Of a stretch of DNA of 64,000 bases, positions 4,532-44,139 are shown in pieces. The first letter of the stretch is position 1; the number at the start of each line of letters is the position of its first letter. Under the pieces are notes generated by a model. It worked only from the letters and a program-made list of their open reading frames with translations. It did not search any database and had not been told where the DNA came from. Where the stretch lies: positions 17,843-81,842 of the forward strand of contig JAUWXV010000001.1 of the NCBI GenBank assembly GCA_030616165.1, written 5' to 3'. Source of the DNA: a bacterium. Its GTDB lineage: Bacteria; SM23-31; JAUVVT01. Both the position numbers and the translations under genes were made by a program.

Positions 4532-5476
4532 TTATTTTTGCTCTGGAGTTGTAATAAATTTATGTTCTAATTTAATAAATGCTTTTCCTTTATGATTTTC
4601 TATAATTTTAACTGCATCTGTACCTATGAATGTATGAGTAGTCGCGTGGAAAATAGATAGATATAAATCTTGGATTTTGGGATTGGATTCCAAATTTTCT
4701 ATTTTTAATTTCATTTCTTTTGCCTGTTCTCTAGATATATGGCGAGAATGACTTTTTAAATCAGACCGAGATAATTCTTCTGAAATTTCATTTGCCTTTT
4801 TTGATGCGTCTTTTTCACCCTTAAACATATAATTTTCTAACCAATTTTTTAATAAGTCTTTAGACAAATTTATTGCATTTTTACATTCCATTAATAATGA
4901 AGGACCATATTGAGGAAGAATTGGTATCCAAACCCCTAACATATCAGGATTTTTGCATTCTTCTACTGCAAAATTAAATTGATCTAATATAGCATTAGCT
5001 GGTACTAATATATTTCCAAATTGAGTAGGAATAACCATTTGTGGGTCTATAGGTCCAATAAATGAATGTTTGCCCATTATAATGATATCTGAACCACAGG
5101 CAAGCATTGTTGCAGCTGACATTGCTAAATTAGGTATAATAACTCGAATATGAGTATATTTTGTTCGTAAATAACTCAATATAGCTTCAGCAGACTCTGC
5201 GCTTCCTCCAGGACTGTGAATTATCAAATCTAAATTCGAGCCCTTTAAACCATGCATTACTTCCATTAATCCCTGAATATCTTCATCATTAATACTGATA
5301 AATTCAGGGTTGTCAACTTTACCTTGAGTAAATTTTGAAGCATAAAGAATTGTATCTCGTTTAGTCTCTCTGTAAACATTACTTAAGTATTTGCGTCTTA
5401 ATCTATCATATGGAGCTGGATCTTTATCATCTATTAATTTTTTAATTTCATTAAGAATTTCACTCCATGTTGGCAT
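4532..5476 (-). CDS. ClpP-fold serine protease of the S49/SDH (serine dehydrogenase proteinase) family
   Basis: IHSPGGSAESAEAI motif around the catalytic Ser, similar to the SppA/SDH families. Confidence 0.5.
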   Translation of the reverse strand: MPTWSEILNEIKKLIDDKDPAPYDRLRRKYLSNVYRETKRDTILYASKFTQGKVDNPEFISINDEDIQGLMEVMHGLKGSNLDLIIHSPGGSAESAEAILSYLRTKYTHIRVIIPNLAMSAATMLACGSDIIIMGKHSFIGPIDPQMVIPTQFGNILVPANAILDQFNFAVEECKNPDMLGVWIPILPQYGPSLLMECKNAINLSKDLLKNWLENYMFKGEKDASKKANEISEELSRSDLKSHSRHISREQAKEMKLKIENLESNPKIQDLYLSIFHATTHTFIGTDAVKIIENHKGKAFIKLEHKFITTPEQK

Positions 5477-5837
5477 CTATAATAAAATTCCTTATATTTA
5501 ATGAATAATATTTCAAATACCAAAAATCAGTTTTTATATGAAAATAATCTATTATTATGTTGAAGAAGAGTTTTGAATTCTAGATCTATTTTTATAATAT
5601 TGGTACATAATTTTAAAATAAGAATTATATTTAAAATTAATTTTAGAATATTTATTATAAATATCCATATAATCAGCAACACCCGGGTTTTTCATTGCCT
5701 CATCTAACATTCTTTCTTCTTCATTTTCTATTTTAGATTTAGTTATTTTATTTTTCATTTTAGACCTTTAATTAATTTTAATAATTTAAATTCAATAATT
5801 TAATATATTATAATATCGACAAAAATCAAAGAGTTTT

Positions 5838-6692
5838 TTAAAATTTTATAAAATAAGATTGAAAACTATGATTCAATTTCTTCATAAAAATCACCATGGT
5901 GCTGTACATAACATAACATTCAATTGCAAATACTGGAAATCCTAAATATCCAACAACCGGCATTTCAAAAATCTTAACATCGCCCCAATAAGGTACAGTG
6001 TAAATCCACTTTGTATACGCCCAGAAATTCCAGAACTCCCATAGTATCCCGCATATAATCCCTGCGGTGAAGTGTGTGAGAAATTTCTGACTGCTTCCAC
6101 TCTTTAACTCCCTTATAAAAGAACCTCCATTTAATAAATAATTGATAGGTTCAAGGAAAAATATAAAACCAGTCCAGACAATTGGTGCGTAATATTCAGA
6201 AGGATTTACAAATGGTAAAATAAGAAATATGAAACCAATAAAAATAATTACAATTAACCATAATCTTTTAGGTTCAAATTCACGGAAAGAACAATTCTTA
6301 AAAATACCAAAACTCTCAAGCAGGTCTCTTGTCTCAAATATGGCAGGATAAATAGTGGAAAATGACCAGCAGTAGCCAATATACCTTATAGGCAGATTTT
6401 CAGGAAGATTTACATAATGCCAGTTTTTAATAAAAAGATTGTATCCTTCAAATATAAGCCAGAATCCAACAGATAGAAAAAGCAGAATTACAAATTCTTT
6501 AAAATGATGTGATATAAAAGATTCCCCCTTATTTCTATATATTATACTGTCGATAAAAAGTATATATCCCGACCAAACCAATGGAGTAAACCAGACTCCA
6601 ATGATTTGATTATCAAAAAATAAAGCAATCTCGGCAAATATTATAATAAATAAACCAGCAAAACCGTAAATGTAAACAATCCTTTTTTTCAT
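5838..6692 (-). CDS. polytopic integral membrane protein (function unknown)
   Basis: Multiple hydrophobic helices and an aromatic-rich sequence. Lies 6 bp downstream of the kinase gene on the same strand. Confidence 0.45.
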   Translation of the reverse strand: MKKRIVYIYGFAGLFIIIFAEIALFFDNQIIGVWFTPLVWSGYILFIDSIIYRNKGESFISHHFKEFVILLFLSVGFWLIFEGYNLFIKNWHYVNLPENLPIRYIGYCWSFSTIYPAIFETRDLLESFGIFKNCSFREFEPKRLWLIVIIFIGFIFLILPFVNPSEYYAPIVWTGFIFFLEPINYLLNGGSFIRELKSGSSQKFLTHFTAGIICGILWEFWNFWAYTKWIYTVPYWGDVKIFEMPVVGYLGFPVFAIECYVMYSTMVIFMKKLNHSFQSYFIKF

Positions 6693-6697
6693 TTATC

Positions 6698-8059
6698 CTA
6701 TTTGATGTTTTTTTCCGCAGCCAGAATCAAGTTCTTAACAATCTTATTAGAGGGATCTTTTTCAAGCACGCTCTTCCATTCTCTAACCGCTTCACTGTAT
6801 ATATCAGCCTGAAAATACATTTTACCAAGGTTAATTTTATATTCTAAGTTATCTGGGTTAAGCCTGACCGCAATCTCCCAGGAAATTATGGATTTATCAA
6901 GCATTCCCAATTCAGAGTATATCCTACCAAGATAAGGATATGCCCTTGGATTATCCGGTTTGAGTTTTACTGCCTTTTCTAAAAATATTCTCGCCTGATT
7001 ATACTCTCCGTAACCTAAATTAAAAAGTTCCACACCCTTCTGTAGCAGTTCTTCCTGATTCTCACTCCTTTTGAAAAACTCTATACTTCTAAACCTCTGA
7101 TAAATACTTAAAAATTCATCCTTTTTCAAATATCCGATAGTAATGATAAAAACAAATAATAAAAAGGCAAAAGTAACTTTTAATGAAGTTCGAGATTTCT
7201 TAACTCTTTTTATTTTGAATTTTGAGATTTTGGATTTTTGGTAAAGTTTTTTCAAATCATTTTTTAACTGATTAATATCTTTATAGCGGGATGAAGGAAC
7301 GATTTCCGTCGATCTTTTTATAATATGAGTAAAATTCTCAGACCAGGGGCAATCTAAATATTTTTCAGGGAGTTCGGTTATCTGACCACCTGGTGGGGGC
7401 ACAATCTTGGTAATCGTTGTATAAATTGTTTTTCCAAGCGAGTATATATCGACCTGAGAGGTGATTGGTTTAGATTTGCTTATCTGTTCGGGGGCGGCGT
7501 ATGCAGGAGCTCCAACAACTGAAGAAATCATATCTTCATCAGAATAAAACTTTGCTATGCCGAAATCGACAATCTTAACAATCTTCCCCTCATACACAAG
7601 AATATTATCGGGTTTAATATCCCTGTGAATTATCTTATTTTTATGAAGAAATGCAAGCCCCTCACATACCTGAAGGCTGAAGTTTATATGCTGGTTGAAT
7701 GTATATTCTTTACTCAGAATATTACCATGAGGAATAAACTCAGTAATAAGATAAAAACTGGGCATACCATCTACGTCAACAATAGTTCCAAAATCCTCAA
7801 TCTTTATAATATACCTGTGATTAAGTTCCATCAATATTTTTATCTCAGCCTGAAAATCGTTTATAACCCTATCGAACTTTCTAATAATACTGGGTTTCAG
7901 AACCTTTACTGCAAATTTCTTTCTGGTCTTTGCCTTAACTGCAAGATATACCTCAGCAAAAGTATTTCTTATATCTCTACTCAGCGGTGTGCTTTTCAGT
8001 ATCATGTATTCGTCGTGCTCGCCAAATATAAATCCTGCTGGAAAATTTAACTCAGTCAT
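6698..8059 (-). CDS. Ser/Thr protein kinase (Hanks-type) with a transmembrane segment and C-terminal TPR repeats
   Basis: HRDIKPDNILV catalytic loop, DFGIAK, APE motif. TM helix FAFLLFVFIITIGYL, followed by TPR-like repeats (ARIFLEKAVKLKPDNPRAYPYLGRIYSELG...). Confidence 0.9.
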   Translation of the reverse strand: MTELNFPAGFIFGEHDEYMILKSTPLSRDIRNTFAEVYLAVKAKTRKKFAVKVLKPSIIRKFDRVINDFQAEIKILMELNHRYIIKIEDFGTIVDVDGMPSFYLITEFIPHGNILSKEYTFNQHINFSLQVCEGLAFLHKNKIIHRDIKPDNILVYEGKIVKIVDFGIAKFYSDEDMISSVVGAPAYAAPEQISKSKPITSQVDIYSLGKTIYTTITKIVPPPGGQITELPEKYLDCPWSENFTHIIKRSTEIVPSSRYKDINQLKNDLKKLYQKSKISKFKIKRVKKSRTSLKVTFAFLLFVFIITIGYLKKDEFLSIYQRFRSIEFFKRSENQEELLQKGVELFNLGYGEYNQARIFLEKAVKLKPDNPRAYPYLGRIYSELGMLDKSIISWEIAVRLNPDNLEYKINLGKMYFQADIYSEAVREWKSVLEKDPSNKIVKNLILAAEKNIK

Positions 8060-8081
8060 AAATATATTTTTTTAAAATCTT

Positions 8082-8801
8082 TTATTTATTATCAATTAGT
8101 TCAGGTTTGGGTGACTTTGAGATTACTTCAAATTCCCCGATAAAAAGGTATTCTCCCGTTTTTTCCTTATACTCTTCATGAATTACATTTTTCAATCCCA
8201 CAGATTTTTCCATTACTGTTAATCTCCTGAAATCTTTAATAAGATTAATATTTTTAAGGATTGTTTCTGATTCAAAACTAATTCCTGCCTGAATAGATGC
8301 ATTTTCTATAGCATTCCTGATTGCTTCATCTCTGTCTGCCATTCTGCCGTTTTTCCTTTCATCAGAATACCCCTTTGCAATAACAATTTTCACATTGTCA
8401 GTGGGCTCTTTGGTTAGAGAATGAATCTTCTTCTGATCTGTTGTGATGAGTTCCGAATCTCCTATAAAGGGGGTAAAATTTACGGTGCAGCCCTCGGGTG
8501 GGAACTTCAAACCTTTATGAAGGCATATCCCTTTTATTGTTTTTTCTACCGTCTGATTTGGTGGTATAATAACAAACCCAGCCCCTGATGTAATAATTAT
8601 ACTCTGATAATAAGAGGCATCAACCTTTGCTATCTCAAGAATTCTTCCTTTTTCGAGATTTAACTTTTTCCAGTTATTTGAGTTATTCTTAAATGTTATA
8701 GTCAGAGTAAAATCGGTTGCATGGATACCTTTTAAAGGGGAAAAAGACAATATAATAATTAAAATAAATATTTTTTTAAAAAACATATATGTTCCCTTCA
8801 T
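8082..8801 (-). CDS. secreted hypothetical protein
   Basis: N-terminal signal peptide (FFKKIFILIIILSFSPLKG). ATGA overlap with the upstream HEAT-repeat gene. Confidence 0.45.
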   Translation of the reverse strand: MKGTYMFFKKIFILIIILSFSPLKGIHATDFTLTITFKNNSNNWKKLNLEKGRILEIAKVDASYYQSIIITSGAGFVIIPPNQTVEKTIKGICLHKGLKFPPEGCTVNFTPFIGDSELITTDQKKIHSLTKEPTDNVKIVIAKGYSDERKNGRMADRDEAIRNAIENASIQAGISFESETILKNINLIKDFRRLTVMEKSVGLKNVIHEEYKEKTGEYLFIGEFEVISKSPKPELIDNK

Positions 8802-9757
8802 TTTAACACGACTTTATCGACGATGACATTTATTTCAACATCATCATCAATTTTATTAATAGCCTGATTTGCAGCCGAACTTTCTTTGAGACTGAATTTA
8901 ATCCTCATTGCAGAAAGGTTCGGAAAAATCAGTTTTTCCCCATCGGTCTCTAACTCCATTAAATCAACCCTGCGTTCCATATCAAGGGATATAAAATTAT
9001 GCTTTCTCCAGAATGCGAGTATTGTATTCATACCCGCTTTTTTGAATTCGGGAGCGGAATATACCCTGTAAGCAACTTCTCCGTAAGTATCTCCAAAAAA
9101 CGTAGGCAGACTAATAGTAGTAGGATATCTACTTTGAGCCCCATCTGGCAGAAGGTAATCCTTCTTAAAATCCTGAATACGCTTGATACGTTCCTTTATT
9201 AATTGATTAATCTTTTTAACTCCAGTAGAATATCCAGGAACAGTCTTAACTTTAAAAACAGGAGTTCCAAAATATACTATAAGTAATAAAGAAATAATAA
9301 ATAATAAAGAAATACCAATTATGACAAGCAGTGGTGATTTTTTCTGGTAAGGATAGAACTCCTCTTCAAGTAAATCTTCTGTTTTTTCTTTTTCAGGTAA
9401 CTCAATCTCCTTTTTATATACCTTTTCTATAATTTCGTTCTTGATTTTTGACTTCAATTCCTGATATGAAACCTTCTTAAAATTTTCAAAAGCAATAGAA
9501 GCAGCAACCCTCACACCTTTATCTTTATCAAATCCCTTTAACTTGCCTATTTTTTTAAGGGCTTTTTCATTTCCCATAACACCCAGTACCATTACCGCAT
9601 TTAATCTTACTTCGGGATTTTTATTTTTAAGGAGTGACATAACCTCCTTTACAAATTCAATTTCACTGCTTACACAAATTAAAGTTCCTGCCCTCTCCAT
9701 GGATTCTTTGTCTCCAGAGCCAAGTTCGTCCACCAAAAATTTAATTCTCTTATCCAT
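8798..9757 (-). CDS. HEAT-repeat (PBS-lyase-like) protein with a single TM helix
   Basis: NPEVRLNAVMVLGVMGNEKALKKI...DKDKGVRVAASIAF HEAT-like repeats; central hydrophobic helix LLVIIGISLLFIISLLLIVYF. Confidence 0.5.
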   Translation of the reverse strand: MDKRIKFLVDELGSGDKESMERAGTLICVSSEIEFVKEVMSLLKNKNPEVRLNAVMVLGVMGNEKALKKIGKLKGFDKDKGVRVAASIAFENFKKVSYQELKSKIKNEIIEKVYKKEIELPEKEKTEDLLEEEFYPYQKKSPLLVIIGISLLFIISLLLIVYFGTPVFKVKTVPGYSTGVKKINQLIKERIKRIQDFKKDYLLPDGAQSRYPTTISLPTFFGDTYGEVAYRVYSAPEFKKAGMNTILAFWRKHNFISLDMERRVDLMELETDGEKLIFPNLSAMRIKFSLKESSAANQAINKIDDDVEINVIVDKVVLK

Positions 9758-9857
9758 AATAATTTTCTTCCTTTTTAATTTTACTTTCTCTTGAAAAAGA
9801 ACCTGCTTTCTTTGAAAAAAAATAGGCTCCGCTTAAGGCGGATAAGAAACTTTATGC

Positions 9858-11177
9858 TCATTTCCTCAAGTACTCTTGTGATGAATGAGAAATGGTTAAA
9901 TTTTTTTCCATCTCAGAAGCAGCCATAATAAATCCAACCATAAAAGAGAAAGTCAGGTAAGCAAATCCTCCTTTACTTAAGAAGGGGAGTGGAATCCCTG
10001 TCAAAGGTATCAAATTTATCACACCTCCAATGTTAACAAAAGTTTGAATACCGATAATAATACTGAAACCCAAAACACAATACCTGACAAAATTATCACT
10101 GCATTTGAATCCTGTTATTAATCCCGAAATCAACAAAGAAAAATATATCAAAATTAAAGAAAGTGTTCCAATAAATCCTATTTCTTCTGCATGAACATAA
10201 TAAATGAAATCAGTGCTGGATTTCGGTTTTAAATCAGTATAACCCATCCCAAAACCGACTCCAAATAAGCCACCCGAATGAACCGCAAATAGAGAATTTA
10301 ACGGCTGATATATCCTGCTGAACCATTCAGTGGATGGAAATCCATTCCAGAAGTCAGTCCAGATTTCAAATCGTGCAACTACATATTCAGGCAAAAACCT
10401 GTATAAAAATGGAATTATATAAATAATAAAAAATATAAACAAAACACCACTAAAAAAATATACAAACTTTCCAGATACAGCAAAAAACAAAAATAAAATA
10501 AATAAACTAAATATTATAATCTGCCCCAAATCTCCCATCGCTATAAACAATATCTGTGGAATAATCCATAAAAGAAAAATAGGACAAATTATAATCAAAA
10601 TCAAAACAAAAAAATTGTTTTTCTTAATAAAAATTATCGAATATTCACTTAAAAACCCTCCTATTACAAAAACTATCGGAATCTTTGCAAGTTCCCAGGG
10701 CGTTCTCGAAAAAAGAAATTTTTCTCCGATTATATTGGAAATGATTGACCAAATAAATAAACACAAAATAGTTGTACCAAATAAAAGATAATATCTCCTT
10801 TTTAATTTTGCAATCCAATTATTTCTAAAATAAAAAATAATAATCGGTATAAATAAAATACCAAGAATCAGGGATATAATAAAAGTAGAAAATAATCGAG
10901 TGGATGGAGAAGATAGAGCAAATCTGTAATTTAATGAGAGATTTATTCCAGTTAAAAAAGATATCACAATTAATGGTATGTAATTACCTTTAAACTTCAT
11001 AACCTTTAAAACAGCATAGACAATTAAGAATAACAGCATTATTGAAATATTTCTTATAAAGGGCGGAGTGCTCGCGAAGTTCCCAGTCAGAAAGGCTGAA
11101 TAATAAATCTCAAAATGTGCGAGAACAGTCATCATAATCGAGAGTATAATTAAGTATAATTCACATCTGTTTTTCAT
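9858..11177 (-). CDS. SEDS-family peptidoglycan glycosyltransferase (FtsW/RodA/SpoVE)
   Basis: About 10 TM helices. Conserved SEDS block HSGGLFGVGFGMG...DFIYYVHAEEIGFIGT. Confidence 0.75.
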   Translation of the reverse strand: MKNRCELYLIILSIMMTVLAHFEIYYSAFLTGNFASTPPFIRNISIMLLFLIVYAVLKVMKFKGNYIPLIVISFLTGINLSLNYRFALSSPSTRLFSTFIISLILGILFIPIIIFYFRNNWIAKLKRRYYLLFGTTILCLFIWSIISNIIGEKFLFSRTPWELAKIPIVFVIGGFLSEYSIIFIKKNNFFVLILIIICPIFLLWIIPQILFIAMGDLGQIIIFSLFILFLFFAVSGKFVYFFSGVLFIFFIIYIIPFLYRFLPEYVVARFEIWTDFWNGFPSTEWFSRIYQPLNSLFAVHSGGLFGVGFGMGYTDLKPKSSTDFIYYVHAEEIGFIGTLSLILIYFSLLISGLITGFKCSDNFVRYCVLGFSIIIGIQTFVNIGGVINLIPLTGIPLPFLSKGGFAYLTFSFMVGFIMAASEMEKNLTISHSSQEYLRK

Positions 11178-11495
11178 ATTTTTAATTTTAAGTTTTCTTT
11201 GCCACTTTCTTTTTTAAAAGAAAGTAGCATATTTAATAAAAATTAACTAAAGTCTATTAATTTAATCAACAGAACTTTGATAAATTTCTACTGTAGATAA
11301 TTCGAAACATTCTGAAACAAATAAAGGCTGACTGTCATGCTGAATCCTGTGCTGAACTTGATTCAGTATTATTTCAGCATCTTAGCAATTAATAAACAAT
11401 AGATTCCGTCCCTTGTAGGGGCGGTTCGTGAACCGCCCTTACCTGTGCTTTTGTGAATTAATAGAACCAATATATTTACAAAAAATAACAATTTT

Positions 11496-13061
11496 TCAAA
11501 ATTTATCAGAGTTTTGTTTATCAAAATAACCCTGATTTTTAGCTTCGATTAAAATTTTTTTAGCAATTGAAGCAGCATCCTCACCGCCATACCCTCCATT
11601 CTCAACAACCACCGCAAGGGCAATTCGTGCATTATTATATGGAGCAAACGCAGTAAACCAACTGATATTTCCCATTCCCGCCTTTTCAGCGGTTCCAGTC
11701 TTTCCAGCAACCTCAAGACCAGAGATATTTACCCGAAAACCAGTTCCATTTTTCACAACATTTCTCAAAATATCTTGTAGCCTTTTCGCAGTAGATTTTT
11801 TAATTAACCTCCAACCTTTTTTATCTTTTTTATTTTTTTCGATTTTTGGATACACCAGAATCCCGTCATTTGCAATAGCGGCTGTAAAAAGTGCTACCTG
11901 CATTGGTGAAACAAGAACTCTTTGCTGACCGATAGATGCCCAGGCTAAATCAGATTCAGAAATATCTTCATACTCGGAGAAAAAACCCGTATTGATAGAA
12001 AAATCCTTTTTGAATAAATCATTAGTAGAATTCCATTTAAGTTTTTGGTTAAATCCGAATTTTTCTGCATACTTTTTAATAGTCTCTCTCCCAAGTGCAA
12101 CACCAAGTTTGGAAAAATATACATTGCTCGATTTTTCCATTGCACTCTCTAAATCCAAATATCCATGCCCTTTCCATATCTTTCCCTTTTTTTCATAAAT
12201 TCTCTTTTCAATGTCAAATATTCTTCTTTTCGTTCCAGATGGTAGATAGCCCTCTGGTGCACAGTAAAACCTTCTATTAAAATTATTTTCAATTGCAGCA
12301 GCGGCAGTTACAATTTTAAAAACCGATCCGGGGGGATATCTACCCTTCAAAGCCCTGTTAAACATTGGTGCTTCTTCTGAATTATTAATTATGCTCATCC
12401 AGGTCTGCTCATCGGAAATGTCATTCGTCGGAAAACCCGGAGAACTCACGAGACACAGCACTTCCCCGGTTTTTGGAATCAAAACAACAGCAGCCCCGCA
12501 CCTTTCTCCAAAAGAAGAATATGCCTCATGCTGAAGTTTACTATCTATTGTCAGATGGAGATCTTTTCCCTTTTGCTTTTTCATTGAAAAGTAGTTTAAA
12601 AAATTAAATTCTTTACCAACCAAAAAATCGTGATAACACCTTTCTATTCCTGCACCACCCCTCTCAATATCCCAATATCCAACAAGATGTGATGCCGCCT
12701 TACCTAATGGATATATTCTTTTCTTCTGATTATTAATCCTGATGCTTAATGCCAAATTTTCCCCCCCTGTTCTATCTAAAATTTTTCCCATTTCTACTCT
12801 TTCATCCTTGAGCCATTCCCTTCTGTCAAAAAGCCTGATGCTCTGATTCATCCTCTCGTCCTTGCAAAACAACTGCCACTTTGATTGATATATCAGAACG
12901 GATAAAAATAAAAGGAAAAAAAACAATGCGGTCGAAAAAAATATAATTCCTGATTTTACCTCTCTTGTTATATGTCTTGCAGTTGCAATTAAAATATTTA
13001 TACTTGCCACCGTCAATCCAAAAATATAAATGAATTTCAAAAATATGTATAATATCTTCAT
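11496..13061 (-). CDS. class B penicillin-binding protein (PBP2-type transpeptidase)
   Basis: N-terminal TM anchor. SxxK (GSVFK), SxN (KSSNVYF) and KTG(T) (AGKTGTAE) transpeptidase motifs. Confidence 0.85.
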   Translation of the reverse strand: MKILYIFLKFIYIFGLTVASINILIATARHITREVKSGIIFFSTALFFFLLFLSVLIYQSKWQLFCKDERMNQSIRLFDRREWLKDERVEMGKILDRTGGENLALSIRINNQKKRIYPLGKAASHLVGYWDIERGGAGIERCYHDFLVGKEFNFLNYFSMKKQKGKDLHLTIDSKLQHEAYSSFGERCGAAVVLIPKTGEVLCLVSSPGFPTNDISDEQTWMSIINNSEEAPMFNRALKGRYPPGSVFKIVTAAAAIENNFNRRFYCAPEGYLPSGTKRRIFDIEKRIYEKKGKIWKGHGYLDLESAMEKSSNVYFSKLGVALGRETIKKYAEKFGFNQKLKWNSTNDLFKKDFSINTGFFSEYEDISESDLAWASIGQQRVLVSPMQVALFTAAIANDGILVYPKIEKNKKDKKGWRLIKKSTAKRLQDILRNVVKNGTGFRVNISGLEVAGKTGTAEKAGMGNISWFTAFAPYNNARIALAVVVENGGYGGEDAASIAKKILIEAKNQGYFDKQNSDKF

Positions 13062-13143
13062 AAATCTCGCAAATTTTTATTTTCTATTTAAAATTTTTGT
13101 ATTGCAACTTTTTTGTAAAAAAAGTTGCGTAAAAAACTTTAAA

Positions 13144-13845
13144 CTATATTTCCATTAATTCCAGCACTACAGTTCTTTTTCTGCCGAGATATATCTTATC
13201 ACCTGGAATAATATAAACACCATTTTTTACAGGAATTAAGTCATCATTTAAATACGTTCCGTTTTTGCTTTTGCAGTCCGAAATCTTTATATCACCAGAA
13301 GAAGATAAAACCAAGTTTGCATGACATGCAGAAACATACGGATTATCAATGTGAATGTATGCCTCCATTTTTCTACCAATTTCATATTCCCCGGGTCCAT
13401 CAATTATCCACATTTTACCTTCCTCATTAAGAAGTTTTAAATAATAACTTTTTTCTTTAATTATTGTGTCTTCCTCATTTGAAGAAAAGCAGAGTAACTT
13501 AATTTCATAATCTTTCAAGTATGACAAAGGATAAAAATCTATTATAATTTTCTCATTTCTTAACCGACAGCCAAGAAATAAAAAATATTCTTCAATTTCC
13601 TTCTTTAAGCAAAATATCAGTATTTCTTTTTTCTTTTCTATCTTTCTATATGTTTTTTGACTCACACAAATCAAGAACCTATAAGGAACAGATTTAATAT
13701 CTTTTCTGTTGTTAACAAAAAAACTATTTATTTTTTCTACAATATGAAAGTATAATCTATCCTTATGGTCTGATGGAATCAAACACCAGAACGGAAAAGT
13801 CACTAAATTTTTAATTTTTTTATTTAAATTTGTTGTAATTCCCAT
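13144..13845 (-). CDS. FHA-domain protein
   Basis: C-terminal FHA signature EYEIGRKMEAYIHIDNPYVSACHANLV...KSKNGTYLND...IPGDKIYLG. Confidence 0.7.
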   Translation of the reverse strand: MGITTNLNKKIKNLVTFPFWCLIPSDHKDRLYFHIVEKINSFFVNNRKDIKSVPYRFLICVSQKTYRKIEKKKEILIFCLKKEIEEYFLFLGCRLRNEKIIIDFYPLSYLKDYEIKLLCFSSNEEDTIIKEKSYYLKLLNEEGKMWIIDGPGEYEIGRKMEAYIHIDNPYVSACHANLVLSSSGDIKISDCKSKNGTYLNDDLIPVKNGVYIIPGDKIYLGRKRTVVLELMEI

Positions 13846-13877
13846 CCTTACTTAAAAACCAGTTTTTTCAAAATTTA

Positions 13878-13990
13878 ACCACAGAGAACACCCACAGGGC
13901 AGGCAGAGTCCGACTGTGGCGGAAATATCAATGAGTTAAGGGAAATACTATTCTCTCCTCTCTGCCTGCCCTGTGGGTGGTCTCTGTGGT
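13878..13990. repeat. long near-perfect inverted repeat (about 32-bp arms, about 48-nt loop)
   Basis: aaccacagagaacacccacagggcaggcagag ... ctctgcctgccctgtgggtggtctctgtggtt. Located between the two FHA genes. Confidence 0.6.
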
Positions 13991-14028
13991 TTCATATTTT
14001 ATCCTCGTTTTTCATAGAACTTTTGACA

Positions 14029-14916
14029 CTACCTAAAAACCAATAATTTTAATTCGAAAGTATAATCTCCCATTTTAATCTGGTCTTTAATAAAAATTTC
14101 TCTTTTCTTTCCGAGTTCCAGCTTTTCTTCATTCAAATATGTACCATTAATCCCAAGGGGCATGACAAATATCTTGTCATTTTCCATGATTAATTCAATA
14201 TGCCTTCGAGAAATTTTATGGTCGGTGCTTTTAAGACAAATATCACATCTTTCACTTCTCCCAACAGTATAAACTCCATCCTCGAGGTCAATGTATTTTT
14301 CTTCATCATTATAAGAAATTTTCAAGATGTAAATCCTATTCTTGTCTTTATCAAAAGAGGTCTTGTTCTCTTGTATTATCTTTATTGCATCATCTGATAT
14401 CAGCGGCAAAAACTTCCTTTCCGCGTTCAACAAAGGATTATTATCATTTTCCAGGTCAAATTTGTCCTCGATTAATGTCTGCTGTAATGAACTAACTCTC
14501 TCCGAAAATTTATTTTCTCCCGTTTTTAAGATACTTCTGTCCAGTGAACATTCAATATAAAATTCTCCCGGCTTTAAATCGTCATCTGATTGGATTTCTA
14601 CATAAAAATGTTCTATATTACGATTATTCCATTCCTTAGAAAGATTGTATAATTCTTCTTCAAGTTCACTTTTCAGTATGTCTTCGATATCACGGCGCAT
14701 ATTTCTATCAAACTGGCTGAAAAATATCTCGAATCTATTCGGTATAACTACTTTTTTACCAATTTCATCGATGTTTTCTTCTATTGCACATTTTAGTTTT
14801 TGGGAAATCTTTGAAAATGGTATTTTTCTGCTTTTAGAAAATCCACTTTTATCGAAATTGGATAAATTAAGCAAAAAACTTTTGAATGCTTCAAAAAAAT
14901 TATTTAATGTCATCAT
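14029..14916 (-). CDS. FHA-domain protein (N-terminal uncharacterised domain plus C-terminal FHA)
   Basis: YTVGRSERCDICLKSTDHKISRRHIELI...LGINGTYLNEEKL...IKMGDYTFELK. Confidence 0.75.
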   Translation of the reverse strand: MMTLNNFFEAFKSFLLNLSNFDKSGFSKSRKIPFSKISQKLKCAIEENIDEIGKKVVIPNRFEIFFSQFDRNMRRDIEDILKSELEEELYNLSKEWNNRNIEHFYVEIQSDDDLKPGEFYIECSLDRSILKTGENKFSERVSSLQQTLIEDKFDLENDNNPLLNAERKFLPLISDDAIKIIQENKTSFDKDKNRIYILKISYNDEEKYIDLEDGVYTVGRSERCDICLKSTDHKISRRHIELIMENDKIFVMPLGINGTYLNEEKLELGKKREIFIKDQIKMGDYTFELKLLVFR

Positions 14917-14945
14917 AATTTCTCCAGGTTGTTTTTTTATAAATA

Positions 14946-15149
14946 TTATTGATTTTTTCTCATTTTTTCTTCAATTATCCTCTTGATTTCAGCAACATTT
15001 TCATCATTAAAAACCCTCCATCCCCTCCAATCCTTTTTTACTTTAGAAATCTTTCCCTCTTTTTCCCATGTAAATAGAGTCTTTTTGGTAACATCAAACA
15101 TTTTACAGATTTCGTGAGCAGTGTATTTCTTCTTATGTGCTTTTTCCAT
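14946..15149 (-). CDS. small MerR/excisionase-type HTH DNA-binding protein
   Basis: HEICKMFDVTKKTLFTWEKEGKI helix-turn-helix. Start chosen at internal ATG 15149, which is preceded by an AAGGAG RBS. The longer ORF-track N-terminus is AT-rich junk. Confidence 0.5.
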   Translation of the reverse strand: MEKAHKKKYTAHEICKMFDVTKKTLFTWEKEGKISKVKKDWRGWRVFNDENVAEIKRIIEEKMRKNQ

Positions 15150-15565
15150 TGATAAACTCCTTATATATAATAAAAATAATATAATAACTATAATTTCTAT
15201 AATTACTATAGTAAATATAATAATTAATTTTCTGTTTGTCAAGGAAAAAATTAATTTTTTGTAAATTTTTTTAATTTAGTTTAATTTTACATTATGGCAG
15301 GAGATATTCACAGAATTTTTATTGTAATATGTAGGGGCGGTTCTCGAACCGCCCTTATAAAAATTATATTATAATATTGTTTTGCTAATCATGGATTTGC
15401 TCACCAATTTTTTGGATTTTCCTTACCCGATTCCCATTCTAATGGACTATTAATGGGGCATTCGCGAATTAGGTGTAAGGACGAAGCATTTAACTAAATA
15501 GTTTTCAAAAAATTTACAGCATAGACAAAAAAATGCTTCGCCCTTACTGATTTTGGTTTCATTTA

Positions 15566-17005
15566 TTAGATATGGACAACCTTTATCCCTGCGAGCTCGC
15601 AGTATGCTTTGAATGGAATCTCCAGGTCGCTGTAAATAAAGAGCTGGTGGAATCCCTTCGTGTCACGGACATCAGGGACACCGTCCACCTCAATCTCCAT
15701 GGATGTACGGCAGCCACCTGCAGGTGGAGTATCGATATTGCGAAGTACCCGACCTGTGCCGAGAAGTATGGAATCTGGTCTGGTGAACTGCATTATTGTA
15801 ATCTTTTGGCCAACGCGCCAGAGAACCTGTGGTGAGACTCCGAGTTCAGACTCATTATGGTTGCGGAGGATGAAGGGCTCGTGGGACCTGTTAAAACCGT
15901 CGAGTCTGGTGGGGCTGGTGCAATGGGCAGCCATCAGTGTATTATTGACTGTGTTAGGCGCGGGATCTTGCATGAAGCCTGGTCGGTCGAAGAGAAGGCT
16001 CGTGAGACGCTGGGATATGGTGTGGTTCACGCTGGCTTCGCAGGTCCCGACATAGCCTTCGTCGAGGAGCCGTAGCAAGGCTATGCAGGGTGGACACGGG
16101 ATCTGGCGGTCACCAACCAAACCCAGGCAGTCCATTGAGATGCCATGGCAGTTCTCGGCTTCCATGATTCTGCGGGAAACAATGTAATTCTTCGCTGCAT
16201 TTATCCTGTCACCTCTGTTCGGCTCAACGATCCTCTCACTCCTGGATTCGTAGTAGTCGGCGATTGCTCGAATCTCTTCGGTTGTCTCCGTCTTTTTGAA
16301 TTCCTCTGAAAAGCGGTTGCGGGGGATATAGTGAATCGTCGTGCCGATGGTATCGAGCTGCCGGTCATAAGTCTTATTGCCTCGCATGATGCATATGCGG
16401 GTGTGTTTCATCTGCCATATGGTATTGAGCATCCGCATAGCGAAGTTGAGCCAGCTGACATCCTGAGTGGCACCAACCGTGACACCTGTGATATTTCGGG
16501 TTCCCTGGAGGTGTTGGGTAAAGGAAGTTCCCATCTGGCTGAACACAACCATCGGGATTTCTCCATGGTTCTCGGCAATGTGATTAATGTTACCCCAGGC
16601 TGGGTCGTTGAGGCTCATTGAGACAATCACGATGCCGTCTGGCGGAGCCTTCTCGAGGCTCTCGAGGAATGCGCTGATGGTATTGGAATCATGCAGTGGC
16701 GCCTCGATTATCTCAAGGTCAATTCCAAACTTCTTGGCAGCATCTGTCAGCACCTTCGTATACTGAACCTGGTGACCTTTAATGTCGAAGGAGGCTCCCG
16801 GCCAGCCCATCCAGTATTTCTCGACATCTGGACGAACAAATGCTGCCCGAACCAGAGGCTTCCTCGATGTCTTGACTTGCACAGCTGAGTTCGGCGCGTC
16901 GAAATCGACAAATCCTCTATCCAAATTTATCTTTGGCAGTACTGCAGCTGCACTTACACCAGCAGTAAACTTCTTTAAAACTTCTCTCCTTGTTATTTTC
17001 TTCAT
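15566..17005 (-). CDS. Tat-signal secreted protein of unknown function, on a GC-rich island
   Basis: MKKITRREVLKKFTAGVSAAAVL twin-arginine signal. The body is about 50% GC against about 33% in the surroundings. Flanked by palindromic repeats. Confidence 0.5.
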   Translation of the reverse strand: MKKITRREVLKKFTAGVSAAAVLPKINLDRGFVDFDAPNSAVQVKTSRKPLVRAAFVRPDVEKYWMGWPGASFDIKGHQVQYTKVLTDAAKKFGIDLEIIEAPLHDSNTISAFLESLEKAPPDGIVIVSMSLNDPAWGNINHIAENHGEIPMVVFSQMGTSFTQHLQGTRNITGVTVGATQDVSWLNFAMRMLNTIWQMKHTRICIMRGNKTYDRQLDTIGTTIHYIPRNRFSEEFKKTETTEEIRAIADYYESRSERIVEPNRGDRINAAKNYIVSRRIMEAENCHGISMDCLGLVGDRQIPCPPCIALLRLLDEGYVGTCEASVNHTISQRLTSLLFDRPGFMQDPAPNTVNNTLMAAHCTSPTRLDGFNRSHEPFILRNHNESELGVSPQVLWRVGQKITIMQFTRPDSILLGTGRVLRNIDTPPAGGCRTSMEIEVDGVPDVRDTKGFHQLFIYSDLEIPFKAYCELAGIKVVHI

Positions 17006-19300: not shown

Positions 19301-21709
19301 ATGAAAAGAATAGTATTGTTATTCATTAATGTCTTATTTAGTATTCATTTTATAGTATTTCAGGTTTCTTTATTTGCAAGTGATGAATTTGCTACTGCTC
19401 TGCAAACTGACGAGTTGGAGATTCTGCAAGACACGAAACCTTTAACCTGGGAGGGTGACCTGTCGAAAAGAATGATGGACGGCGCCCATCGGTATATTGA
19501 GCGGAAAATCGACGAGTCAGTTACAGTCCGCCAGAAATACTGGAAGCGGGATCTCTCGTCACGAACTGCATATGAAAAATCCATCGAGCCGAACCGCAAG
19601 CGCTTCATGAAATGCATCGGTTTAGTGGGCGAGCGCGTGCCGGTTGTGATGCAGCGTCTTTGTGAAGATGCTAACCCAGAACTGGTTGCCGATACGGATA
19701 AATATAGCGTGTATCAGGTTCGCTGGTCGGTGCTGGATGGAGTGTTTGGCGAGGGGCTTTTGCTCGAGCCGAAGGTCAAGCCTACTGCTTATGTCGTGGC
19801 AGTTCCCGACGCGGGTCAGACTCCCGAACAAATTGTCGGCTTGGCAAGCGGCGTACCGAAAGAAGCACAGTATGCACGCCGCCTTGCCGAAAACGGCTTC
19901 CAGGTCGTGGTGCCGGTGATTATCAGCAGGTCTTCGGATTTTTCCGGGCACCAGGACCAGACACACCGTGAATGGATTTATCGCCAGGCGTTTCATATGG
20001 GCCGGCACATTATCGGCTACGAAATGCAGAAGGTGCTTGCAGTTGTGGACTGGTTCAAGAAAATAGCCGGAGAGGAGGCGAAGATAGGTGTTGTCGGATA
20101 CGGTGAGGGAGGATTGATAGCGTTTTATGCCGCGGCAGTGGACACACGGATAGATGCAGCACTGGTCAGCGGTTATTTCCAATCGCGTCAGGGTGTGTGG
20201 AATGAGCCGATATACCGTAATGTGTGGGCGCTGCTGCATGAGTTTGGAGATGCCGAAATCGCCACTCTGATTGCTCCACGTCCATTAGTAGTTGAATACA
20301 GCAGAGTGCCAGAGGTTGACGACTATGCAGAGAGGTTGCGGAGGAACCCTTATGTCACGAGTGGTTTTACTGTCGACGGGTATAAGGGCCAACTGCGCAC
20401 TCCGTCGTTTGAATCTGTCAGGGAGGAATTCAACCGAATTGACATACTGACGAAGCCGTCTTTTCAGCCGAAGAGCCTAATCAGCGGCAAGAACGGCTCT
20501 ACTGTGGCCCCCGGCTCGGTACAAGCGATGCGGGAATTTGCCCAATTGTTTGGAGTCCGATCGTCTATGACGCTGTCAATCGACCTGCCCATTGATCGCC
20601 GCAAGTCGCTCGATTCTGCCGAATTGCAACACCGGCAGCTCAAAGAGCTTGAATACCATGTGCAGCGGCTGATTCGCGATGCAGATTATGTCCGTGACCA
20701 ATTCTTCATGTACAAGGTGATGCCCGAATTTGCAAAAAAGAGGTGGAGCACCGCACAGCGACACGAGACATATCCATCGCAGAAGTTCATAGAAGGAACA
20801 AAGGAGTACCGTCAATACTTCTGGGAGGAAGTGATAGGTAAGTTCGATGAGCCAATGCTTCCGATGAATCCGCGAGCAAGGAAAATTTATGACGAACCGA
20901 AATGGGCAGGCTACGAAGTGGTGCTGGACGTGTTTCCGGATGTGTTTGCCTGGGGCATCCTGCTGGTTCCGAAAGACCTGAAAGCCGGTGAGAAGCGACC
21001 ATTGGTGGTATACCAGCACGGACGCAATGGTCTGCCCAGGAACTCCATCAAGGGAGGGCGGGAAGTTGCAGCGAAACTGGCTGACCGAGGATTTATCACC
21101 TTTTCACCGCACAACCTTTACCGTGGTGAGGATCGGTATCGCTTTCTTGACCGCAAGGCTAATGGAGTTAAGGCATCATTGTTTTCTTTCATCCTCGCTC
21201 AACACGAGCAGATTCTAAACTGGCTTGAAAAACTGCCGTTTGTGGATAGTAAGCGAGTAGGATTCTACGGGATTAGCTATGGGGGTGAGACGGCGGTGCG
21301 TGTGCCGCCGTTGCTTGAGCGATATTGTCTGTCAATCTGCTCAGCCGACTTTAACGACTGGGCGCGCAAGGTTGCCAGCACTCACCCTCAAGGCAGATAC
21401 AGTTTTATGTACACTATTGAATGGGAGATGCCGTACTTTGACATGGGCAGTACGTTCAACTATGCAGAGTTGGCATACCTGATGGTGCCGCGTCCGTTCA
21501 TGGTCGAGCGTGGCCACCACGACACTGTTGCACCTGATGAGTGGGTTGCTTATGAGTATGCAAAAGTGCGCTGGCTGTATGCACAACTGGGGCTTGCTGA
21601 TAAAACAGAAATAGAATACTTTAACGGCGGACACGCCATTAACTTCAGCGGTACATTCAAGTTTCTGCACAAACACCTGAACTGGCCGGAGCCTGCGGGG
21701 CAAGAATAA
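19301..21709 (+). CDS. secreted alpha/beta-hydrolase family protein (tandem hydrolase folds; esterase/peptidase-like)
   Basis: Signal peptide. GxSxG nucleophile elbows (VVGYGEGG and GISYGGE). GC-rich body. Confidence 0.5.
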   Translation: MKRIVLLFINVLFSIHFIVFQVSLFASDEFATALQTDELEILQDTKPLTWEGDLSKRMMDGAHRYIERKIDESVTVRQKYWKRDLSSRTAYEKSIEPNRKRFMKCIGLVGERVPVVMQRLCEDANPELVADTDKYSVYQVRWSVLDGVFGEGLLLEPKVKPTAYVVAVPDAGQTPEQIVGLASGVPKEAQYARRLAENGFQVVVPVIISRSSDFSGHQDQTHREWIYRQAFHMGRHIIGYEMQKVLAVVDWFKKIAGEEAKIGVVGYGEGGLIAFYAAAVDTRIDAALVSGYFQSRQGVWNEPIYRNVWALLHEFGDAEIATLIAPRPLVVEYSRVPEVDDYAERLRRNPYVTSGFTVDGYKGQLRTPSFESVREEFNRIDILTKPSFQPKSLISGKNGSTVAPGSVQAMREFAQLFGVRSSMTLSIDLPIDRRKSLDSAELQHRQLKELEYHVQRLIRDADYVRDQFFMYKVMPEFAKKRWSTAQRHETYPSQKFIEGTKEYRQYFWEEVIGKFDEPMLPMNPRARKIYDEPKWAGYEVVLDVFPDVFAWGILLVPKDLKAGEKRPLVVYQHGRNGLPRNSIKGGREVAAKLADRGFITFSPHNLYRGEDRYRFLDRKANGVKASLFSFILAQHEQILNWLEKLPFVDSKRVGFYGISYGGETAVRVPPLLERYCLSICSADFNDWARKVASTHPQGRYSFMYTIEWEMPYFDMGSTFNYAELAYLMVPRPFMVERGHHDTVAPDEWVAYEYAKVRWLYAQLGLADKTEIEYFNGGHAINFSGTFKFLHKHLNWPEPAGQE

Positions 21710-30405: not shown

Positions 30406-30849
30406 ATGATGAAACTTTCTACAAAAGGACGATATGGCGCGAGGTTAATGTTGGACCTTGCCATACACTATGATGATGGATTTGTTTTGTTAAAGGATAT
30501 TGCTAAAAGGCAGGATATATCTGAAGGATATATGGAGCATCTTCTTCCTCATCTCAAGGCGGCAGGACTGATAAATTCATTGCGAGGTGCACGAGGTGGT
30601 TATAAACTGGCTAAAGCCCCTTCTGAAATATCTCTTAAAGAAGTAGTTCAATCTCTGGAAGGACCATTAACTCCAGCAGAATGTGTTGTTGCTCCTTCTG
30701 TTTGTAAGAGAGTTAGTTTTTGTGTTACACGGGATATATGGAAAGAAGTAGGAGAAAAAATCTCTCAGACTTTAGAATCAGTAACTCTGAAAGATATGGT
30801 TGAGATGCAAAAGAATAAAGGAAAGGCATCTCTCACATATAACATTTAA
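30406..30849 (+). CDS. Rrf2-family (IscR/CymR-like) transcriptional regulator with three-Cys cluster ligands
   Basis: [18 protein letters not shown] winged-helix N-terminus; C-x6-C-x5-C ([14 protein letters not shown]). Confidence 0.85.
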
Positions 30850-30874
30850 CAATTTAAGAAAGGAGGATAATATA

Positions 30875-31711
30875 ATGAAAAGATTTATTAATGTTTCAGA
30901 AAAGCAGATTACAAGAGCGATTGTGAATGAATTTTGTAAGGATTTTCTTGATAATATCTACACAGAAGTTATCATTGTGGGTGCGGGGCCCAGTGGGCTT
31001 ATAGCTGGGAGAGAATTGGCAAAGGAAGGATTCAAAGTGCTAATTATAGAGGCTAACAACTATCTAGGTGGTGGCTTCTGGCTTGGTGGTTATTTGATGA
31101 ATGGACTTACGGTAAGAGAACCTGCGAATGAAGTGCTTGATGAATTAGCGATTCCTAATGAAAAAGTGGAAAAAGGCTTATATTTTGCAAATGGGCCCCA
31201 TGCTTGTTCAAAACTCATAGCTGCAACATGTGATGAGGGAGCAAAGATTTTGAATATGACTAAATTCGATGATGTTGTGCTCCGGGAAAATAATCGCGTA
31301 AGTGGGGTGGTAATTAATTGGACTCCAGTATCAAGTTTACCGAGGCAGATTACATGTGTGGACCCCGTTGCTCTTGAATCCAGAATTGTTATTGATGCTA
31401 CGGGACATGATGCGTGTGTAGCTAACTCCTTAGCACAGAGAAATCTACTTAAGATTAAAGGATTTGGGGGTATGTGGGTAGAAAAATCTGAGGATTTGGT
31501 GGTAGAAAAGACCGGTGAGGTTCACCCTGGCTTAATCGCTACGGGAATGGCTGTAGCAACTATCTTTGGAATCCCAAGAATGGGACCGACCTTTGGAGGA
31601 ATGCTGCTTTCAGGAAAGAAAGCTGCCGAGGAAGCAAAGAAACTGCTAACCAAGGAGAAAGTGGATTTAGAATCTTTAACTATTGAAATAAAAGAAGAAA
31701 TTGCAGTTTAA
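30875..31711 (+). CDS. Thi4-family thiazole synthase-like flavoprotein
   Basis: [28 protein letters not shown]...GGGFWLGG dinucleotide-binding motif typical of Thi4. Start at ATG 30875 with an AAGGAGG RBS. Confidence 0.65.
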
Positions 31712-31771
31712 AAGAGTTTTACTTTTTAATTTTTTAGCTATTTTAAATTTAACCAATATAGGAGTAAAAAA

Positions 31772-32704
31772 ATGGCAAAGATAGCGGATGATATAACAAA
31801 ATTAATAGGGAATACCCCATTAGTCAGGCTAAACAGAATAGGAACTGGGTTAGAAGCGACTCTAATAGCTAAACTTGAAAGTTTTAATCCTTTATCGAGT
31901 GTGAAGGATAGGATTGGAGTTTCTATGATTGAAGAAGCAGAAAAGGAAGGATTTATTAAAAAGGATACAGTAATCATAGAACCTACCAGCGGCAACACCG
32001 GGATATCACTGGCTTTTGTCTGTGCAGCAAAGGATTATCGTTTAATATTAACGATGCCGGATACTTTTTCAATTGAACGCAGACAACTATTATCAGTATT
32101 TGGAGCAGAGGTTGTCTTAACCCCTGGTCAGGAAGGGATGCCGGGAGCGGTGAGAAAGGCAGAAGAACTTTTAGAGAATACTCCTAATTCTTTTATGCCG
32201 CAGCAATTTAAAAATCCTGCAAATCCAAAGATACATAGGGAAACCACTGCGGAAGAAATATGGCAGGATACGGATGGCAAGGTAGATATTTTGGTGAGTG
32301 GTGTAGGTACGGGTGGCACAATCACAGGAGTTGCTGAAGTAATAAAAGAAAGGAAACCTGAGTTTAAGGCAATTGCTGTTGAACCTATAGATTCGCCTGT
32401 TCTTTCGGGAGGGCAACCTGGTTCACATAAGATTCAGGGAATTGGAGCAGGATTTATACCCGATGTTTTGAGAATGGAACTGGTTGATGAAGTAATAAAA
32501 GTTACTAATGATGACGCCGGAGAGTTTGCAAGGAGATTGGCAAAAGAGGAGGGAATACTCGCAGGTATATCCTCTGGTGCTGCTGTACGTGCGGCAGTTG
32601 AGGTGGCAAAAAGAAAAGAAAACAAAGATAAACTTATTGTAGTCGTTTTACCGGATACTGGTGAGCGATATCTAACTACCTGGCTCTTCCAGGAGCTTTA
32701 TTAG
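31772..32704 (+). CDS. cysK: cysteine synthase A (O-acetylserine sulfhydrylase)
   Basis: [25 protein letters not shown] (PLP lysine region), [10 protein letters not shown]. Confidence 0.9.
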
Positions 32705-32741
32705 GGAGCAACGGCTATATAAAAGGACAAAATGAATTTTA

Positions 32742-32963: not shown

Positions 32964-33027
32964 TAAGTATGCTGAACAAACATTCATAATGAAATCAATA
33001 AAGTTAATTGAATAATCAGGAGGAGAA

Positions 33028-44137: not shown

Positions 44138-44139
44138 AA

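Follow-up and report, generated by a model that had tools for sequence, protein, structure and literature searches.

A conserved gene cluster of candidate division KSB1 that probably couples a SEDS/PbpA-type peptidoglycan synthase to phosphothreonine signalling

Is a peptidoglycan synthase of a bacterium with an outer membrane controlled by phosphothreonine (pThr) signalling, as it is in Gram-positive bacteria? This question is raised by nine minus-strand genes at positions 5838-15149 of a 64-kb stretch of contig JAUWXV010000001.1 (the whole stretch is termed the window), which encode, among others, a penicillin-binding protein (PBP), a SEDS protein, two FHA proteins and a Hanks-type Ser/Thr kinase. 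To our knowledge, almost all that is understood of the control of peptidoglycan synthesis by Ser/Thr kinases and FHA proteins comes from Actinobacteria and Firmicutes, in which PASTA domains sense muropeptides. The actinobacterial locus fhaA-fhaB-pstP-rodA-pbpA-pknA-pknB, to which the cluster was likened in the original prediction made from the sequence of the window, corresponds to Rv0020c-Rv0014c of M. tuberculosis. The analysis described here suggests that the cluster is likely to be one conserved KSB1 operon, in which a peptidoglycan polymerase consisting of the SEDS protein and a PbpA-type PBP is encoded together with a pThr control circuit of its own. This suggestion is based on the gene content, the catalytic and pThr-binding motifs, the synteny and the promoter footprint, all of which are directly observed.

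Arrangement and conservation of the cluster

The open reading frame (ORF) listing and the Pfam and NCBIfam scans give nine genes in one orientation. They encode, from the 5' end, a MerR-type helix-turn-helix (HTH) protein (14946-15149), an FhaA-like protein (14029-14916, termed FhaA), a second FHA protein (13144-13845, termed FHA2), the PBP (11496-13061), the SEDS protein (9858-11177), a HEAT-repeat protein with one transmembrane (TM) segment (8798-9757, termed HEAT-TM), a secreted two-domain protein of 239 aa (8082-8801), the kinase (6698-8059) and a multi-TM protein of 284 aa (5838-6692). The minus-strand ORFs and their Pfam domains thus bear out the gene content and order of the original prediction for eight genes, to which the gene for the 284-aa membrane protein, co-oriented and adjoining the kinase gene, is to be added as the ninth. 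Tight or overlapping junctions had also been claimed. Only four of the eight junctions are tight or overlapping, because the distances in gene order from the HTH gene are 29, 183, 82, 318, 100, -4, 22 and 5 nt; the claim does not hold for the other half.

The host is assigned, from its protein sequences, to candidate division KSB1, a diderm group of the FCB superphylum. The homologues of the secreted protein that carry a phylum name are from KSB1 and the nearest PBPs are from metagenome-assembled genomes (MAGs) of KSB1 and Calditrichaeota, so that Ignavibacteria/Chlorobi, suggested at first, is not the host group. The description of the genome as Gram-negative and equipped with a type IX secretion system (T9SS) agrees with one multihaem cytochrome of the window, which has a T9SS C-terminal sorting domain, and with an adjacent gene for a Wzi outer-membrane protein. 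Both features fit an FCB diderm, and the initial guess is therefore near in superphylum and wrong in phylum.

All nine genes and their flanks (trehalose phosphatase, AdoHcyase, MetK and NTP-transferase) are present in the order of the window in locus L003 (GCA_004196255.1). The order MerR-FhaA-FHA2-PBP-SEDS-HEAT-secreted protein is also found in L004 (KSB1 GCA_042576465.1) and L089 (a 3.78-Mb contig), in which genes for an ion-channel/pentapeptide protein and two secreted proteins lie between the secreted-protein gene and the kinase gene. L090 has the order of L004 and L089 plus one extra gene, and L001, L002 and L022 (bacterium SM23_31) contain the 5' part of the cluster as far as their contigs reach. 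L091 (KSB1 GCA_042562205.1) contains MerR-FhaA-FHA2-PBP-SEDS, followed by genes for an FGE-sulfatase-domain protein, a 204-aa protein, an FtsK_4TM protein and a PP2C phosphatase. The FtsK N-terminal domain encoded in this region (13167-16749 of L091, after the SEDS gene) may point to a connection with the division site. The Calditrichaeota loci L005 and L006 contain FhaA-FHA2-PBP-SEDS-PP2C without the MerR-type gene. The invariant core is thus MerR-FhaA-FHA2-PBP-SEDS, an order kept in L001-L004, L022, L089, L090 and L091; MerR is missing in Calditrichota and the 3' module varies. To judge from sequence, the same arrangement did not arise by chance, since no fewer than seven independent contigs show the order, and their PBP identities go down to 39-41%.

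The 3' module contains a kinase in five loci and a PP2C phosphatase in two distinct loci, counted as two because L005 and L006 share one sequence; both enzymes are found together in no fetched locus. Since a kinase or a PP2C is always encoded at the 3' end, the core is tied to Ser/Thr signalling. The exchange of kinase and PP2C between sister clusters is an argument for a pThr-regulated core that can obtain its writer or eraser in trans. The identity between the window and L004/L089 is 61-63% for MerR, 51% for the secreted protein, 41% for the PBP, 39-40% for the kinase, 37-39% for the SEDS protein, 31-32% for HEAT-TM and 27-31% for FhaA, and is 61% for MetK and 71% for AdoHcyase in the flanks. 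These values indicate that the small regulator and the secreted protein are the most constrained parts of the cluster.

A sigma-70-type promoter (TTGACA, 17-nt spacer, TATATT), which matches the consensus at 11 of 12 positions, is located on the minus strand at 15214-15242, approximately 65 nt upstream of the HTH gene. CTTGACA, exactly 17 nt and TATATT are found upstream of the MerR-like gene in the window, L003/L001, L089 and L022. The HTH gene had been read as a 98-aa ORF with a TTG start at 15242. This TTG belongs to the -35 hexamer, and the gene most likely starts at ATG 15149 and encodes 67 aa, its orthologues having 66-70 aa. The motif TATAG(Y)AA(W)TATA has eight matches in the window against 0.95 expected, and four such motifs are stacked with 9-nt spacing on the minus strand at 15180-15219, where they overlap the -10 hexamer and run past it. 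At least two copies follow the promoter in L003, L089, L022 and L004. The MAFFT alignment of the upstream regions is uninformative; the shared promoter and motifs were read by eye. These sequences provide good evidence for one conserved promoter for the cluster, and they suggest that the TATAG repeats are an operator, most economically that of the MerR-like product of the first gene. This product has a MerR_1 domain (PF13411, E 5e-9) without an effector domain, and is 61-76% identical to the product of the first cluster gene of L003, L004 and L089.

In L004, L089 and L002, most of the genes overlap or are separated by under 25 nt, and the FHA genes overlap the PBP gene in these loci. Separate promoters or terminators between the genes, which would have spoken against the original prediction, are therefore not the rule in the relatives, whose genes overlap behind one conserved promoter. 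Three of the four wide gaps of the window, namely those between FhaA and FHA2 (183 nt), between PBP and SEDS (318 nt) and after SEDS (100 nt), contain hairpin elements. The element in the first gap (13870-13998, minus strand) is 129 nt long, with a perfect stem of 39-nt arms and a folding energy of -72 kcal/mol (z = -10). Because the FhaA/FHA2 gap ranges from -20 to 13 nt in KSB1-type loci and is 71 nt in L005, this hairpin is to be regarded, by comparison of gap lengths, as a lineage-specific insertion; it may act as an attenuator or represent a mobile inverted-repeat element. The second gap contains a GC-rich palindrome of 28 nt (TAAGGGCGGTTCnnGAACCGCCCCTAC; 11415-11442). It has exactly two copies in the window, both in intergenic DNA of the cluster (the second at approximately 15331-15358), and none is expected by chance. 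No copy is found in L003 or in any other relative locus fetched. The palindrome was considered as the operator of the MerR-like protein and rejected, because the relatives lack it and keep the TATAG repeats; it may be a repetitive extragenic palindrome-like or miniature inverted-repeat transposable element-like sequence of the window lineage. The third gap contains a small terminator-like stem at 9828-9842. No known RNA is found in the window with Rfam.

Proteins of the synthase and of its putative control circuit

The PBP is a class B D,D-transpeptidase, as predicted (Transpeptidase PF00905, E 2e-60), with invariant SxxK (S246, K249), SSN (311-313) and KTG (454-456) motifs. It is not a canonical PBP2/MrdA. 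It scores 260 bits with TIGR03423 against a cutoff of 455, and contains PBP_dimer_2 (PF21922, 28.5 bits, cutoff 27) instead of the classical pedestal domain (PF03717); it is hence classified as PbpA-type. Its best solved match is 4MNR (E 1.6e-52). The match to M. tuberculosis PBPA (3LO7/3UN7, E 8e-31) is better by a small margin than that to the best MrdA structure (E 1.7e-29). Residues 1-57 contain two hydrophobic segments with a short basic loop between them, rather than the usual single anchor, and this feature is common to 10 of 10 aligned homologues from KSB1 and Calditrichota. A PBP fragment 86% identical to the window PBP (P0012) is labelled Candidatus Helarchaeota archaeon; its 2.6-kb contig is almost certainly a KSB1 contig misbinned in an archaeal MAG. 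A 5.4-kb contig of a 'Chromatiaceae' MAG (L009) likewise looks misplaced.

The SEDS protein is assigned to the FtsW/RodA family of peptidoglycan glycosyltransferases (FTSW_RODA_SPOVE PF01098, E 1e-41), and the Asp residue of its 'sstDFiy' motif aligns with TDF of E. coli MrdB (8TJ3). It scores 126 bits as RodA and 148 bits as FtsW, against cutoffs of approximately 337, and its gene is downstream of the PBP gene, the reverse of rodA-pbpA. With these scores, with NF008060 at 81 bits against 590 and without PF03717, the two proteins do not form a canonical MrdA/MrdB pair. Neither mreBCD nor rlmH is present near the cluster.

FhaA contains FhaA_N (PF12401, 36.3 bits, cutoff 25) and an FHA domain (PF00498, 55 bits, E 1e-14), and FHA2 contains an FHA domain (E 9e-13), a short linker and no TM or other hydrophobic segment. 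The pThr-binding residues (GR, SxxH, NG(T) and N) are intact in both domains. In the alignment of the relatives, the GR/SRRH/NGT/N residues of FhaA are invariant, as is Thr147, which is located in a disordered linker within QxTLIE in the close group and is also aligned in L004 and L005. The linker of mycobacterial FhaA is phosphorylated, and by analogy Thr147 is a candidate phospho-acceptor. The FhaA_N segment alone matches the ORF in the fhaA position upstream of PP2C-SEDS-PBP-Ser/Thr kinase in several loci of Actinomycetota (E 1e-4 to 2e-6), and the top Foldseek match of FhaA is 2LC1, the FHA domain of M. tuberculosis FhaA. The AlphaFold2 model of FhaA, with a pLDDT of 58, matched only in its FHA domain and is too poor for a comparison of the N-domain with 2LC0. 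FHA2 aligns with FhaA with 98% probability over 184 columns including the N-domain (hhalign), indicating that the two are FhaA paralogues rather than FhaA and FhaB; the score for FhaB/FipA (NF049868) is 33 bits against a cutoff of 125. An exact-sequence look-up gave no match for the window FhaA, and a scan of GTDB with the FhaA alignment found no relative.

The kinase has a Pkinase domain (PF00069, E 2e-44), a TM segment (293-311) and C-terminal TPR families, the TPR domain being predicted to be periplasmic. K52, E72, HRDIKPDN, DFG and APE are conserved. The Gly-rich loop (residues approximately 26-39) is replaced by the glycine-free sequence PLSxxxxNTFAEVY, which the KSB1 orthologues strictly keep; NTFAEVY is found in L003 and L004. 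The conserved catalytic residues suggest that the kinase is probably active. It scores 147 bits with the PknB-type model NF033483 (cutoff 450), and no PASTA domain is found in the cluster proteins with Pfam or NCBIfam.

HEAT-TM consists of HEAT repeats (HEAT_2 PF13646), a TM segment (143-161) and a 160-aa C-terminal domain of unknown fold. It has approximately 20 full-length relatives among 1.84 billion representative proteins, and its orthologue is encoded directly after SEDS in L003, L004, L089 and L090. The secreted 239-aa protein has a signal peptide and no Pfam match. Those of its 33 homologues (up to 77% identity) that carry a phylum name are all from candidate division KSB1, and by this distribution it appears specific to KSB1 clusters. 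The 284-aa protein has no Pfam or NCBIfam match. Its L003 orthologue is 74% identical and its gene overlaps the kinase gene; no homologue is present in L004 and none is detected in L089 or L090. It is confined to the window and the L003 lineage, and its membership of the system is uncertain.

A proposed circuit and its alternatives

We infer the phosphorylation partners, the operator function and the physiological role of the cluster from these features and by analogy. The membrane kinase would detect a signal in the periplasm by means of its TPR domain, perhaps in concert with HEAT-TM and the secreted protein. It would phosphorylate cytoplasmic Thr residues, for which Thr147 of the FhaA linker, the juxtamembrane region of the kinase and the short loop or tails of the PBP and SEDS proteins are candidates. 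The two cytoplasmic FhaA-type proteins would dock on pThr through their FHA domains and recruit or gate the synthase, and the MerR-like protein would set the expression of the operon by binding to the TATAGYAAWTATA repeats at its one promoter upstream.

Several observations weigh against this proposal. The hairpins in the 183-, 318- and 100-nt gaps might terminate or attenuate transcription, so that the nine genes of the window are perhaps transcribed into more than one mRNA. The activity of the kinase is only presumed, because its Gly-rich loop is degenerate. No PP2C is found among the cluster proteins with Pfam, and tblastn of the Calditrichota PP2C against the 64-kb window gives nothing below E=1; these scans agree with the original prediction, which had noted the lack of PP2C and the presence of TPR instead of PASTA. 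The topology of HEAT-TM is ambiguous, and the positive-inside rule places its C-terminal domain in the cytoplasm. The secreted protein matches no family that would point to a function. Finally, the SEDS/PBP pair may be an extra synthase or the only elongation pair of the cell, both being conceivable.

The cluster might instead be an 'actinobacterial island' without an integrated role, recently acquired from a Gram-positive donor such as Actinomycetota or Clostridia. PbpA-type PBPs are mainly reported in Actinomycetota and Bacillota (PMC12516126), the best solved PBP match is that to 4MNR, and the GC content of the cluster is 32%, against 37% for the whole window. However, in a neighbour-joining tree, which is distance-based, midpoint-rooted and indicative only, the PBPs from KSB1, Calditrichota and SM23_31 constitute a separate clade adjoining Kiritimatiellia, apart from the group of Actinomycetota, Chloroflexota and Clostridia. 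The identity to Gram-positive PBPs is just 30-37%, and PBP precedes SEDS in the diderm clade, whereas SEDS precedes PBP in the other groups. The AdoHcyase, MetK and NTP-transferase flanks stay with the cluster in L003, L004 and L089, and the divergence within KSB1 (PBP 41%, MetK 61%) indicates long vertical residence. A recent transfer is therefore very unlikely. Equally hard to accept, and if anything more improbable, is the explanation that the genes are mere neighbours, the FHA proteins and the kinase acting in a pathway of type VI or type III secretion systems (T6SS, T3SS) or in a MADS-like anti-phage pathway, and the SEDS/PBP pair being the housekeeping elongasome. The matches that would speak for such pathways (TagH, TIGR03354, 34.8 bits; Yop-YscD_cpl, 44.7 bits; PADLOC mad1, 28.9 bits, and mad6, 187 bits) cover only a generic FHA, HTH or kinase domain and are far under the cutoffs where these are set (TagH 120, MAD6 460). 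A T6SS assignment of the FHA proteins, which the original prediction had named as a possible objection, is rejected, since the TagH match covers the FHA domain alone and is below the cutoff; no T6SS genes are among the window ORFs scanned, and no T3SS or other MADS genes were found. The MADS reading is rejected as well: only the HTH protein (mad1) and the generic kinase domain (mad6) match, NCBIfam MAD6 gives 107 bits against 460, and PADLOC finds no match for the other seven cluster proteins or for the adjacent protease. The large intergenic gaps with hairpins in the window would also suit separate units, but the FHA genes overlap the PBP gene in the three relatives named above, and the five-gene core is invariant amid changing surroundings (L090, L091). 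The PBP and SEDS proteins score under the MrdA/RodA equivalog cutoffs and have no mreBCD or rlmH nearby, which does not suit a housekeeping elongasome.

A third explanation, which is unlikely, concerns the role of the synthase. The pair would be stage-specific, similar to SpoVE/SpoVD, and would build a specialised wall (a cyst, a resting cell or a filament septum) in a developmental switch under the control of the HTH protein, instead of serving the regulation of vegetative growth. This protein has the size of BldC, the MerR-like developmental regulator of Streptomyces, and matches the BldC structures 6AMK and 6AMA weakly; the SEDS/PBP pair is non-canonical, an FtsK_4TM protein is encoded in one KSB1 variant (L091), and SEDS/bPBP genes flanked by kinase and phosphatase genes resemble the contexts of spoVD-spoVE (PMC12516126). 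The HTH protein, however, scores 21.6 bits with the BldC family NF033787 against a cutoff of 77, its likeness to this family being one of size and architecture only, and no other developmental genes are adjacent. A developmental role is compatible with the pThr-controlled synthase proposed here, since it refines the role and not the mechanism.

The cluster is real and conserved, and has no earlier description in the literature searched. It belongs, in rearranged form, to a known functional theme and does not establish a new principle. It represents a homologous FhaA/SEDS/PbpA core in uncultured diderm phyla, combined with a TPR sensor and new envelope partners, and corrects the impression from recent surveys that PbpA-type PBPs are essentially Gram-positive. 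It is conceivable, though we hold it as a tentative view, that the FhaA/FHA-SEDS-PbpA module of the diderm FCB phyla KSB1 and Calditrichota is ancient and was inherited vertically, and that it includes a transcription factor of its own and a periplasmic unit for sensing without PASTA (TPR kinase, HEAT-TM and the KSB1-specific secreted protein). If this is true, Gram-positive bacteria did not invent the pThr control of a dedicated SEDS-bPBP synthase, such control predates the monoderm/diderm divide or crossed it early, and kinase and phosphatase are interchangeable as the signalling enzyme encoded in cis. The cluster thus bears on the age of the regulated SEDS-bPBP module and serves as a natural experiment on the substitute for PASTA sensing in cells with an outer membrane. 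It also offers small conserved parts, namely a 67-aa regulator with a candidate operator, two FHA readers and the conserved Thr147.

Other regions of the window are described for completeness. In the region 4532-5758, with a low GC content of 27%, a 67-aa ORF accompanies a gene for a serine protease of the SDH-type, ClpP-like kind (PF01972/NF047768, below cutoff). The region is located between the genes for the 284-aa protein and trehalose phosphatase, which are neighbours in L003, and by this comparison was probably inserted recently. The 479-aa protein of 15566-17005 has a twin-arginine-like signal (MKKITRREVLKK...) and no Pfam match. Around 19301-21709, the GC content at 20-22 kb is markedly higher, at 49.5% against about 36% for the window. 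Genes for sulfur assimilation and for cysteine and methionine metabolism are present at 30800-38430, where a Thi4-like protein, two PALP enzymes (one a TusA fusion), a sulfite reductase-like protein, PAPS reductase, a hexapeptide transferase and a Cys/Met pyridoxal phosphate enzyme are encoded. A large cluster for multihaem c-type cytochromes, with an NrfD/4Fe-4S module and cytochrome b, is present at 41321-57559; one of its products (49299-52076) is MtrC/MtrF-like and has FlgD-Ig and a T9SS sorting tail, which suggests extracellular electron transfer with a T9SS-exported cytochrome.

Comparison with known systems

The PBP alignment gives at least 600 matches in GTDB; those listed are mostly from Actinomycetota, Clostridia and Chloroflexota and include no KSB1 genomes. 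The 80 loci with the nearest PBPs among the matches listed were scanned with the window proteins. Among them, the loci of Actinomycetota have the order (Ser/Thr kinase)-FhaA-FhaB-PP2C-SEDS-PBP-Ser/Thr kinase-Ser/Thr kinase, those of Clostridia encode a small FHA protein, SEDS and PBP, those of Chloroflexota have SEDS then PBP, and those of Kiritimatiellia contain just PBP followed by SEDS. In the literature searched, such a cluster is not described for KSB1 or Calditrichota, and a cluster of the window type is not described in PMC12516126 (its supplements aside), the 2025 survey that places PBPs with a PBPA_dimer domain mainly in Actinomycetota and Bacillota.

For FhaA, the PbpA-type PBP, the SEDS protein and the kinase, the likeness to the actinobacterial locus is one of homology, and not just of domain names. 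It does not extend to FhaB, PstP, PASTA, the second kinase and the gene order, so that the original comparison is correct for four components. Both loci encode, in one cluster of genes with the same orientation, FhaA_N with FHA, SEDS, a PBP with PBP_dimer_2 and a Hanks kinase of the membrane, with catalytic and pThr-binding motifs intact. The actinobacterial FhaB/FipA is small, whereas FHA2 of the window is a FhaA paralogue. PstP is a PP2C, whereas the kinase-type clusters of KSB1 are without PP2C and the sister variants L005 and L091 have one. Two kinases, of which PknB has PASTA, are encoded in the actinobacterial locus, whereas the window encodes one kinase with TPR and an atypical Gly-rich loop. 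The order rodA then pbpA is reversed in the window, in which a leading MerR-like HTH protein, HEAT-TM and the secreted 239-aa protein are extra, and the host is diderm. In mycobacteria, FhaA binds substrates of PknB, such as MviN and CwlM, in their phosphorylated form and has a part in peptidoglycan synthesis at the poles (PMC11898655).

The clostridial triplet (Fonticella tunisiensis, L008; Thermoanaerobacterium, L010) is similar to the window cluster in that an FHA gene is directly upstream of genes for SEDS and a PBP with PBP_dimer_2, the PBP identity being 34-37%. It differs in having a single 140-aa FHA protein without FhaA_N, in the order SEDS then PBP, and in the absence of a kinase, phosphatase, MerR, HEAT or secreted protein from the cluster. 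The PP2C-type variants L005/L006 and L091 share the FhaA-FHA2-PBP-SEDS core (with MerR in L091) and the PBP clade with the window, but their 3' PP2C replaces the kinase, and HEAT-TM and the secreted protein are absent. A fusion of SEDS, SEDS and transpeptidase, flanked by a Ser/Thr kinase and a phosphatase, is reported for Pedobacter ginsengisoli, a member of FCB (PMC12516126, Fig. 7C). In this case, likened by description only, a giant fusion protein is present and FHA proteins are not reported, unlike in the window. As in the window, however, a non-canonical SEDS/transpeptidase is encoded beside Ser/Thr signalling genes in a diderm of the FCB group, and Pedobacter keeps canonical pairs in addition.

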